Part shown: positions 19,917 to 39,755 of the stretch, piece by piece
How positions within the stretch are numbered: the stretch's first letter is position 1
How the letters are laid out: each line of letters begins with the position of its first letter
Assembly: GCA_944343275.1 (NCBI GenBank)
Contig: CALVMH010000003.1
Location: 31,632-95,631 of the forward strand
Length of the DNA stretch: 64,000 nucleotides
Reading direction: 5' to 3'
Source of the DNA: an uncultured Clostridia bacterium
GTDB lineage: Bacteria; Bacillota; Clostridia; Christensenellales; Borkfalkiaceae
Translations under genes and position numbers: made by a program
Notes under the pieces: generated by a model
What the model saw: the letters and a program-made list of their open reading frames with translations, nothing else
What the model was told of the DNA's origin: nothing
The model's database searches: none

Positions 19917-20159
19917 TTAACGAAGCCAAAGCCAGAGCAGCAAAAAGGTTATGCCGAAGCCAAACAAAATGGCGAGGAAGCGCGGCAGATAGGCAAGATA
20001 GCCCGCGCGGATCAGGGCGCGCTTTTCCTTGCGCGTCGGCTTATCCTCTTCGTTCACCTTTTTCCCGCGGTCGGGACGGTACCACGGCATGCCTTCCACA
20101 TTCATGTCGGCGACCGTTCTGCCGTCGTCCCATTCAGGCAGCTGCTTCTTTTTCATCAC
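19917..20159 (-). CDS. small membrane protein (hypothetical), last gene of the operon
   Basis: 80 aa with a basic/acidic N-terminal part and one C-terminal TM segment (YLPRFLAILFGFGITFLLLWLWL). AGGAG lies 6-9 nt upstream of GTG 20159 / ATG 20156, and the start is 4 nt after the OppF-like stop. Confidence 0.55.
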   Translation of the reverse strand: MMKKKQLPEWDDGRTVADMNVEGMPWYRPDRGKKVNEEDKPTRKEKRALIRAGYLAYLPRFLAILFGFGITFLLLWLWLR

Positions 20160-20162
20160 AGA

Positions 20163-21329
20163 TCACTCCTGCGAATACAGATGGCAGGCACACAGATGTC
20201 CGTTGCCGTAGTCGATCAGCTTGGGCGCGACCTCTTTGCAGATGTCCATGCAATGCGCGCAGCGCGTGTGGAACTTGCAGCCCGCAGGCGGATTGGCAGG
20301 GCTGGGGATGTCCCCCTGCAAAATGATCCGCTTGACCTTGTAATGCGGGTCGGGCACGGGAACGGCGGAAAAGAGCGCCTGCGTATAGGGATGCATGGGG
20401 TTGGCGAAGATATCCTTTTTGTCCCCCATCTCCACAAAATTGCCGAGATACATGACGCCAACCCTGTCCGAGATGTGCTGCACGACGGACAAATCGTGGG
20501 AGATGAACAGATAGGTGAGCTTGCGGTCCTTTTGCAGCTCCATCAAAAGGTTGACGATCTGCGCCTGAATGGAGACGTCGAGCGCCGAGACGGGTTCATC
20601 GCAGACGACGAACTTCGGATTGAGCGCCAGCGCACGGGCAATGCAGATACGCTGCCGCTGCCCGCCCGAAAATTCATGGGGATAGCGGTCAAAGTAGAAA
20701 TCCTGCAAGCCGCAGTGCCGCATGACGGAGATGACGTAATCCCTGTATTCGGATTTCGGAACGACGCCGTGCACTTTCACCGCTTCGCCGATGATCTCCC
20801 CGACGGGCATGCGGGGCGGCAGGCTGGAATAGGGGTCCTGAAAGACGATCTGCATCTGCGGACGCAGAGCGCGCATCGCCTTCCCCTTGACGGACGTGAT
20901 GTCCTGCCCCTCAAAATACACCTTTCCCGCCGTGATGTCGTGCAGGCGCAGGATGCTCCTGCCCATCGTGGACTTGCCGCAGCCCGATTCGCCGACGATG
21001 CCGAGCGTCTGCCCGTAAGGAACATCGAAGGAGACGCCGTCCAACGCCCGCGTATACGTCTTTTTATATTCGAGCTTGCGCTTGGTGCGCATGAGAGGCG
21101 CGCCGTTTTCGTCCGTAGGCGGCTCCTGCCCCTCCTTTGCCTCCACGGGAACGCTCTCTTTGACGAGCTTCCACTCCTTGCGGATGAGGAAGTGCTTTTT
21201 CAGCCCTCTGACTTCCAGGATGTTCGCGGGGTCGTGCACGAACGGCTCTTCCCGTTCTGCACCCGGTGCGCCGTCCGCTGCCGCGCAGGGCGGCTGTGCC
21301 GCGACTTCCTCGCGCCGTTCTTCGCTCAT
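20163..21329 (-). CDS. ABC transporter ATP-binding protein, OppF/DppF-like, with N-terminal extension and insertion
   Basis: Walker [10 protein letters not shown], signature FSGGQRQRICIARAL, Walker B FVVCDEPVSALD, and an Opp-type C-terminal Cys motif (CKFHTRCAHCMDIC). Start ATG 21329 forms an ATGA overlap with the upstream stop. Confidence 0.9.
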   Translation of the reverse strand: MSEERREEVAAQPPCAAADGAPGAEREEPFVHDPANILEVRGLKKHFLIRKEWKLVKESVPVEAKEGQEPPTDENGAPLMRTKRKLEYKKTYTRALDGVSFDVPYGQTLGIVGESGCGKSTMGRSILRLHDITAGKVYFEGQDITSVKGKAMRALRPQMQIVFQDPYSSLPPRMPVGEIIGEAVKVHGVVPKSEYRDYVISVMRHCGLQDFYFDRYPHEFSGGQRQRICIARALALNPKFVVCDEPVSALDVSIQAQIVNLLMELQKDRKLTYLFISHDLSVVQHISDRVGVMYLGNFVEMGDKKDIFANPMHPYTQALFSAVPVPDPHYKVKRIILQGDIPSPANPPAGCKFHTRCAHCMDICKEVAPKLIDYGNGHLCACHLYSQE

Positions 21330-39614: not shown

Positions 39615-39726
39615 ATTTTTCTCCTGCATGGTAGAAGTTTTTCCGGGTTGTATGTGCCGTCATTGCGCGTTCCGGCGCGCACGGGCGCACGGGTACAGAA
39701 TGACAGGATAACAATTGTTTCTATAT

Positions 39727-39755
39727 TTTATCACACATGCCCCCCTTGTTGTCAA
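39727..39755 (-). promoter_or_regulatory. sigma-A-type promoter for the S8/LRR/Opp operon
   Basis: Minus strand: TTGACA (39755-39750), 17-nt spacer, GATAAA (39732-39727) with TG at the extended -10 position, or TAAAAT with a 19-nt spacer. This leaves a ~100-nt 5' UTR. Confidence 0.5.

Follow-up and report, generated by a model that had tools for sequence, protein, structure and literature searches.

A conserved locus of uncultured Clostridia joins a giant S8-LRR surface protease to an Opp-type importer and may couple protein digestion to peptide uptake

The window analyzed here is a 64,000-nt stretch of a contig from an uncultured Clostridia bacterium, numbered from its first letter. Positions 19917-39614 hold nine minus-strand genes, each no more than 36 nt from its neighbor, that encode a giant S8 protease with leucine-rich repeats (LRR), two lipoproteins, the binding protein, permeases, and ATPases of an Opp-type importer, and a small membrane protein. 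An earlier note, made from the sequence alone, had placed these open reading frames (ORFs) and had read them as one operon coupling the protease to the importer. Its gene coordinates were borne out by the ORFs and by independent public gene calls for the source contig, which gave the identical nine genes with a protease of 2475 aa. The genes and their flanking signals are as follows.

39725-39755, minus strand: candidate sigma-70-type promoter read from the sequence (TTGACA at 39755-39750, a 17-nt spacer ending in TGT, then GATAAA)
32187-39629 or 32187-39614, minus strand: S8 protease, 2480 or 2475 aa; Peptidase_S8 interrupted by PA, weak fn3_5 and Big_2, eight LRR_5 stretches
28899-32183, minus strand: LRR lipoprotein, 1094 aa; two Flg_new and six LRR_5; lipobox LAAC
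27712-28902, minus strand: 396-aa lipoprotein; sub-threshold Flg_new only; lipobox LAGC
25020-27683, minus strand: binding protein, 887 aa; SBP_bac_5; lipobox LSAC
23985-24983, minus strand: OppB-like permease, 332 aa; BPD_transp_1 and BPD_transp_1_N
22841-23974, minus strand: OppC-like permease, 377 aa; OppC_N and BPD_transp_1
21326-22837, minus strand: OppD-like ATPase, 503 aa; split ABC_tran match and oligo_HPY
20163-21329, minus strand: OppF-like ATPase, 388 aa; ABC_tran and oligo_HPY, cysteine-rich tail
19917-20156, minus strand: small membrane protein, 79 aa; no Pfam or NCBIfam family
19873-19901, minus strand: intrinsic terminator-like hairpin of 12 pairs, 7 of them G-C, shared with a convergent ger operon

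Counted from the protease end, the consecutive gaps are 3, -4, 28, 36, 10, 3, -4, and 6 nt. The last value, between oppF and the small gene, applies if the small gene begins at ATG 20156 (79 aa) and becomes 3 nt with a GTG start; seven of the gaps previously listed therefore stand as they were given, and the eighth depends on the start chosen. A GGAG-type ribosome-binding site precedes each of the nine start codons. The protease more likely starts at ATG 39614 (2475 aa) than at 39629 (2480 aa), because AGGAG lies at 39625-39621 and the public gene calls also give 2475 aa. Pfam agreed with the domains assigned earlier to the protease, the Flg_new/LRR_5 lipoprotein, the substrate-binding protein, and OppBCDF. 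The earlier description as BspA-LRR lipoproteins fits the 1094-aa protein, which carries LRR_5, and fails for the 396-aa protein, in which Pfam detected none.

The protease begins with a signal peptide. Its Peptidase_S8 match (residues 194-662, E = 7.6e-40) encloses an inserted PA domain (residues 465-537), and the catalytic residues D198, H277, N370, and S597 are intact; the catalytic motifs are also kept in 115 of 122 protease homologues. An fn3_5 match follows the catalytic domain at 27.2 bits, against a cut-off of 27.6, and is weak or faint in the homologues. The LRR_5 region spans ~800 aa (E = 3.4e-104), and PDB entries 4fs7, 4gt6, and 4h09 are among its sequence matches. Both the protease and the 1094-aa lipoprotein (LRR_5 E = 5.4e-78) are thus surface proteins with tandem LRR_5 repeats, as expected for BspA-like proteins. 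The C-terminus consists of a transmembrane anchor (nt 32211-32285) followed by RSKKRRG, without the LPXTG or S-layer-type wall anchor of the cell-envelope proteinase (CEP) group. No LPxTG-like motif occurs in any of 69 distinct complete homologue C-termini, and most of those sampled finish with basic residues after a hydrophobic helix. The best PDB sequence matches of the catalytic region are C5a peptidase, SpyCEP, and cell-envelope proteinases (E = 5e-72 to 1e-63). The match to the named NCBIfam subfamily SGO_0316/0317 reaches 247 bits, against a cut-off of 1400. As judged from these sequence features, assignment of the protease to the PA-insert CEP/C5a-peptidase group of S8 subtilases is correct.

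The binding protein belongs to family 5, cluster C, with an SBP_bac_5 match of 66 bits (cut-off 32.4). It has no sequence match in the PDB. Its structural model (pLDDT 86.7, pTM 0.83) shows a cluster-C fold with a largely helical insertion of ~190 aa at residues ~175-360. The best structural match is Bacillus subtilis AppA with a bound nonapeptide (target-normalized TM-score 0.78), followed by NikZ, CtaP, OppA, NikA, and MppA; the scores of AppA, OppA, and NikA span 0.55-0.78. The structure prediction called for in the earlier note returned a fold closest to that of a known peptide binder. The protein belongs to a distinct long subfamily, of which 228 representatives at E <= 1e-30 were found among 1.84 billion cluster representatives; full-length members are mostly 800-1100 aa long.

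The transporter has every architectural feature of Opp/Dpp systems: BPD_transp_1 is present in both permeases and OppC_N in the second, and both ATPases combine ABC_tran with oligo_HPY. Oligopeptides as the putative substrate are suggested indirectly, by the nonapeptide binder at the top of the structural matches and by the best NCBIfam models, Opp4A for the binding protein and Opp4C for OppC, both scoring under their cut-offs (322 bits against 350 for Opp4C). The Opp4C-type model (278 positions) matches the C-terminal 236 residues of OppC, which at 377 aa is longer. OppB matches Opp/Nik B-type models below their cut-offs. Compared with Mycobacterium tuberculosis OppD (PDB 8j5q), OppD is extended at its N-terminus by ~72 aa of basic character and carries ~110 inserted residues (143-253). 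OppF is also longer than usual, and the cysteine-rich oligo_HPY tails of both ATPases align with the cysteine-rich C-terminal region of M. tuberculosis OppD.

The gene for the 396-aa lipoprotein keeps its position directly 5' of the binding-protein gene. An AlphaFold model of its product (pLDDT 85) contains two beta-grasp domains and a C-terminal beta-rich domain. The beta-grasp domains resemble Flg_new/InlB B-repeats, and the PDB entries matched are di-ubiquitin or InlB B-repeat structures. No PDB match fell below E 1e-3, the C-terminal domain matched no solved structure and has no assigned fold class, and structure search found no enzyme signature. One distant homologue carries a GLUG-motif domain (PF07581), for which the window protein has no Pfam match. 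In six species (loci L044, L047, L055, L056, L070, and L072), a module homologous to residues 104-340 of this lipoprotein (176-340 in L072) is fused to the protease C-terminus. The fusions are single reading frames of ~2920-2940 aa, at ~1140-9975 of each locus. This is a Rosetta-stone indication that the 396-aa module and the protease act together.

The 79-aa protein is anchored in the membrane by a C-terminal helix, and its gene usually follows oppF. Related loci encode 78 distinct homologues, mostly of 65-105 aa, sharing a DDGRT..M motif, then a basic trkE.rA stretch, then the C-terminal helix ending in WL. This pattern identifies a real, unannotated family. In L051 and L073, a gene of this type lies upstream of the protease gene instead.

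Conservation of the linkage was analyzed from both ends. With the binding protein as anchor, one genome per species was scanned, which gave at least 556 relatives; the best 80 loci were fetched, and 65 of these had adequate flanks. A CEP-type S8 gene was linked in 62 of the 65 species-level loci, always on the same strand and with 39-75% identity, upstream of the transporter in 40 and downstream in 22. With the protease as anchor, a metagenome scan using the catalytic region returned 80 loci, 46 of them with full flanks, and genes for an Opp system with the long binding protein lay on the same strand in 44 of these 46 (28 of 29 after clustering at 95% nucleotide identity). Co-occurrence of the S8-LRR and long-binding-protein Opp genes in relatives, which the earlier note had proposed as a check, is therefore present from either anchor, and the absence of linkage that was to refute the coupling was not found. 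The linkage persists over GC contents of 29-63% and binding-protein identities as low as 34%, and the flanking genes are unrelated between loci. Gene-level inspection revealed contiguous units such as lipoprotein-binding protein-BCDF-small protein-S8 and S8-lipoprotein-binding protein-BCDF. The nine-gene layout itself is repeated in public gene calls at 44% and 38% binding-protein identity. The source samples are animal or human gut, from hosts that include chicken, rabbit, sheep, roe deer, giraffe, and human. Together, the loci support a conserved functional linkage of protease and importer.

The conserved core comprises the S8-LRR protease, the ~400-aa lipoprotein, the long binding protein, OppBCDF, and usually the small membrane protein. 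Only relatives arranged like the window clearly have the separate 1094-aa LRR lipoprotein, and because of this limitation we regard it as a clade-specific accessory outside the core. The proposed unit of protease, lipoproteins, and transporter is thus conserved except for this member. Locus L077, an exception to the linkage, has three LRR genes upstream, of which the first is truncated where the locus ends; an S8 gene, if there is one, is probably located outside the flank. Some of the genome labels are clearly unreliable. L038, L041, L059, L065, and L078 are labeled Akkermansia muciniphila, Bacteroides sp., Butyrivibrio crossotus, Staphylococcaceae, and Erysipelotrichaceae; they carry the same Firmicute-type locus as neighboring Clostridia metagenome-assembled genomes (MAGs), and the labels probably reflect bin contamination or loose naming. 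At L163, positions 21682-22529 (plus strand), downstream of the orthologous operon, hold the beginning of a 3948-residue gene call that matches the glycine-rich ALK_LTK_GRD family; a phage-type integrase and a PadR gene lie in between.

One promoter and one terminator had been proposed to flank the set, and both were found again, at 39725-39755 and 19873-19901. The promoter may alternatively be read as TTGACA (39755-39750) with a 19-nt spacer to TAAAAT. A consensus scanner skipped it because the scanner requires the last T of the -10 element, which GATAAA lacks. It sits in a ~380-nt non-coding divergent region between the protease gene and a SpoIIE gene. That divergent SpoIIE gene upstream and a convergent GerA/GerB/GerC operon downstream bound the nine-gene unit. 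No terminator-like site was found in any intergenic gap of the unit. The internal promoter-like and terminator-like matches lie within coding sequence, at counts near chance (19 against 11.3±3.7 and 12 against 11.0±3.7 expected from shuffles, both strands), and no strong internal signal separates the protease and LRR genes from the opp genes, the pattern on which the single-unit claim had been staked. Given the flanking signals, the gaps free of terminators, and the near-chance internal counts, a single transcription unit is the simplest reading, and the nine genes would be co-transcribed.

No Rfam family matched at gathering thresholds in or before the operon, which gives no sign of a leader RNA. 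CodY-box-like 15-mers with three mismatches each occur at window positions 5482, 18949, 39778, 43293, and 54187, five against 0.71 expected from shuffles, and the one at 39778-39792 lies just upstream of the -35 element. Related loci with a visible operon start, 47 in number, were searched. A box was present within 400 nt in only seven, all weak, and CodY control was dropped as an idea because the box is not conserved before orthologous operons.

We consider it probable that the locus is a self-contained module in which digestion of protein at the cell surface feeds a dedicated peptide importer. Four components would be extracellular and fixed to the outside of the membrane: a C-terminal helix would hold the protease, and lipid anchors the remaining three. 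The CEP-type S8 protease would cut extracellular protein, while its LRR_5 region, together with the Flg_new/LRR_5 lipoprotein where present, may hold the substrate or organize a complex. The 396-aa lipoprotein would act as an adaptor beside the protease. The oversized family-5 binding lipoprotein would capture the released oligopeptides and pass them to OppBC, with OppDF powering import, and the 79-aa membrane protein may be a dedicated accessory subunit. Such parts could be physically associated, and the role of the whole would be nutritional. By analogy, the locus most likely builds the PrtP-to-Opp logic of lactic acid bacteria into one unit.

A bolder version is possible but doubtful. Here a single membrane-tethered complex, a "peptide utilisome", would be assembled from five kinds of part: S8-LRR protease, Flg_new/beta-domain lipoprotein, oversized binding protein, permease, and small subunit. 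It would be the Gram-positive, protein-feeding parallel to the Sus utilisome of Bacteroidota, and many gut Clostridia and low-GC relatives, a large and mostly uncultured group, would acquire their nitrogen mainly through it.

Several observations weigh against a surface module for peptide feeding. The nearest solved relatives of the protease include C5a peptidase and SpyCEP, which cleave specific host immune factors and do not serve feeding. The operon encodes no intracellular peptidase, unlike opp-pepO of Lactococcus. No component reached an NCBIfam equivalog cut-off, the identity of the binding protein to any solved binding protein is just 9-16%, and NikZ and NikA rank close behind AppA among its structural matches; nickel chelates and opines are among the other ligands that members of family 5 transport. 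No S8 gene lies within 10 kb of the transporter unit in L074 and L076, and in one low-GC lineage (L117/L120) the S8-LRR gene stands by itself, with housekeeping genes around it. All relatives compared are MAGs or metagenome contigs.

The alternative that survives best, although we consider it unlikely, has the protease act on one host or microbial surface protein (of mucus, the immune system, or a neighboring cell), and not on bulk dietary protein. The LRR_5 and Flg_new parts would then be adhesins or receptors, and the protease would serve colonization or immune evasion with peptide import as secondary salvage. Capture of a specific macromolecule by these modules, as suggested in the earlier note, is speculation. 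The kinship of the catalytic region with C5a peptidase and the chemokine protease SpyCEP points this way, as do LRR_5 segments that match the adhesin model HupY/LrrG and PcpA-type proteins, the retention of the LRR_5 region in essentially all homologues, and the exclusively animal or human gut sources. Nevertheless, the LRR region is poorly conserved (23-49% identity), which argues against a single conserved ligand, and the hosts range from chicken, rabbit, and sheep to roe deer, giraffe, and human. Streptococcal virulence proteases are also not known to be tightly linked to a complete importer.

We regard as less probable still that the transporter imports a metal chelate, an opine-like compound, or muropeptides, with the protease devoted to envelope maintenance or lipoprotein maturation. 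NikZ, NikA, CntA, and MppA are structurally almost as close to the binding protein as AppA and OppA, the permeases score about equally with NCBIfam models of the nickel and Opp types, and the binding protein lacks a PDB sequence match. On the other hand, its top structural match is a nonapeptide binder, the best NCBIfam matches of the binding protein and OppC are the oligopeptide models Opp4A and Opp4C, and a 2475-aa endoprotease of the class that includes casein-degrading CEPs is hard to explain beside metal or opine uptake.

Peptide signaling, in which the protease would mature a secreted pro-peptide for re-import by the Opp-type system, is very improbable. It would rest on the analogy of an extracellular S8 protease beside an Opp-type importer: in Bacillus, Phr peptides undergo maturation by extracellular subtilisin-type proteases before Opp imports them. 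No gene for a small secreted peptide or a cytoplasmic receptor or regulator was seen in or beside the operon, either in the window or in annotated relatives, and the protease, with its size, PA insert, and LRR region, does not look like an enzyme that matures pheromones. Inherited synteny without functional coupling is hardly credible: the loci all come from related gut Firmicute lineages, among which descent alone would leave some synteny, but the protease lies on either side of the transporter and always on its strand, the flanking genes differ completely between loci, GC content and binding-protein identity vary as widely as described above, and six species have an accessory module fused to the protease. 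Nor is there a sign of a single recently spread mobile element, as mobility genes do not flank the loci with any consistency.

Other features of the window concern its wider gene content. Sporulation and germination genes surround the operon, namely, SpoIIE at 39997-42274 (plus strand), GerA/GerB/GerC at 14774-18934 (plus strand), and a SipL-domain gene at 45294-46835 (minus strand), which indicates that the source organism is a spore-forming Firmicute. A second giant lipoprotein ORF (47394-53588, minus strand) encodes 2064 aa with a signal peptide and lipobox LFAC, and no Pfam, NCBIfam, or PDB-sequence match was found for it. A ZMP/ZTP (pfl-motif) riboswitch (61234-61316, minus strand, 53.8 bits) lies directly 5' of a radical-SAM activase gene (60462-61235, minus strand), which is followed by a gene for a pyruvate-formate-lyase-like glycyl-radical enzyme (58074-60113, minus strand).

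How Gram-positive gut anaerobes break down proteins has been charted far less well than the breakdown of glycans. If the locus couples surface digestion to peptide uptake, the pairing of a surface endoprotease with its own importer would tie a specific protease to a specific transporter, and the recognizable locus type would give annotators a marker of a proteolytic, peptide-feeding lifestyle in uncultured gut lineages. It would also provide a testable context for family-5 binding proteins of 800-1100 aa, ~400-aa Flg_new/beta-domain lipoproteins, ~80-aa membrane proteins with the DDGRT motif, and expanded OppD/OppF ATPases.

The closest known counterpart at the level of mechanism is the proteolytic system of Lactococcus lactis (PrtP with PrtM, plus OppDFBCA-PepO), in which oligopeptides made by PrtP, an S8 CEP with a PA insert and fibronectin-like domains, are taken up by the Opp importer (PMC7783315). 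The likeness extends to the PA insert and, from the weak fn3_5 match, to putative fibronectin-like domains. The lactococcal protease genes are plasmid-borne, and PrtM is a prolyl isomerase (PMC7783315). A lipoprotein partner accompanies the protease here too, but Pfam, the model, and structure search gave no isomerase domain in the 396-aa lipoprotein. The lactococcal opp genes lie elsewhere than the protease genes, in contrast to the one unit proposed here. The present locus also differs in its anchor, a C-terminal transmembrane helix without LPxTG, in its ~890-aa binding protein with a large insertion, in its expanded ATPases, and in the added small membrane protein.

The best catalytic-region matches, C5a peptidase (ScpA/ScpB), SpyCEP, and the SGO_0316 family, share the S8 domain with PA insert, followed in the protease described here by putative Fn3-like domains. 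These proteases are anchored by sortase and are not known to carry LRR_5 regions or to be encoded beside an importer. In the dentilisin operon of Treponema denticola, prcB-prcA-prtP, the genes for a surface S8 protease and its lipoprotein partners share a transcript, and the products form a complex; this operon has no transporter, its host is a diderm spirochaete, and no homology of the partner proteins was detected. The operons dppABCDE of B. subtilis and ddpXABCDF of Escherichia coli combine a peptide hydrolase with a family-5 ABC importer. Their hydrolases are small peptidases that act on D-amino-acid peptides, and the operons contain neither a 2475-aa surface endoprotease nor LRR or Flg_new lipoproteins.

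OppD and OppF are expanded in the Opp systems of Mollicutes (such as MMSYN1_0165-0168) as well, and Mollicute OppA lipoproteins are also very large. Only the C-terminal part of the MMSYN1_0167 model (561 positions) was matched by OppD, which suggests that both OppDs carry extra N-terminal or inserted sequence. Scores against the Mollicutes models remained far under the cut-offs (319 vs 740 bits), the two NCBIfam models weakly matched by the binding protein do not include a Mollicute one, and we know of no linked S8 protease in Mollicutes.

A shared design principle is seen in the Sus-like polysaccharide utilization loci of Bacteroidota and their Gram-positive equivalents, in which surface binding proteins, a tethered depolymerase, and a dedicated importer are encoded together. 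Those loci differ in polymer (glycan vs protein), enzyme, and transporter, and there is no homology. We know of no other operon in which an importer is encoded together with a giant surface endoprotease and its lipoprotein partners, and full-text literature searching found no published description of such a linkage, in agreement with the earlier view that the arrangement had not been described as a system. These comparisons support the conclusion that the mechanism-level logic, a CEP feeding an Opp importer, is known and that its arrangement in a single locus is new.

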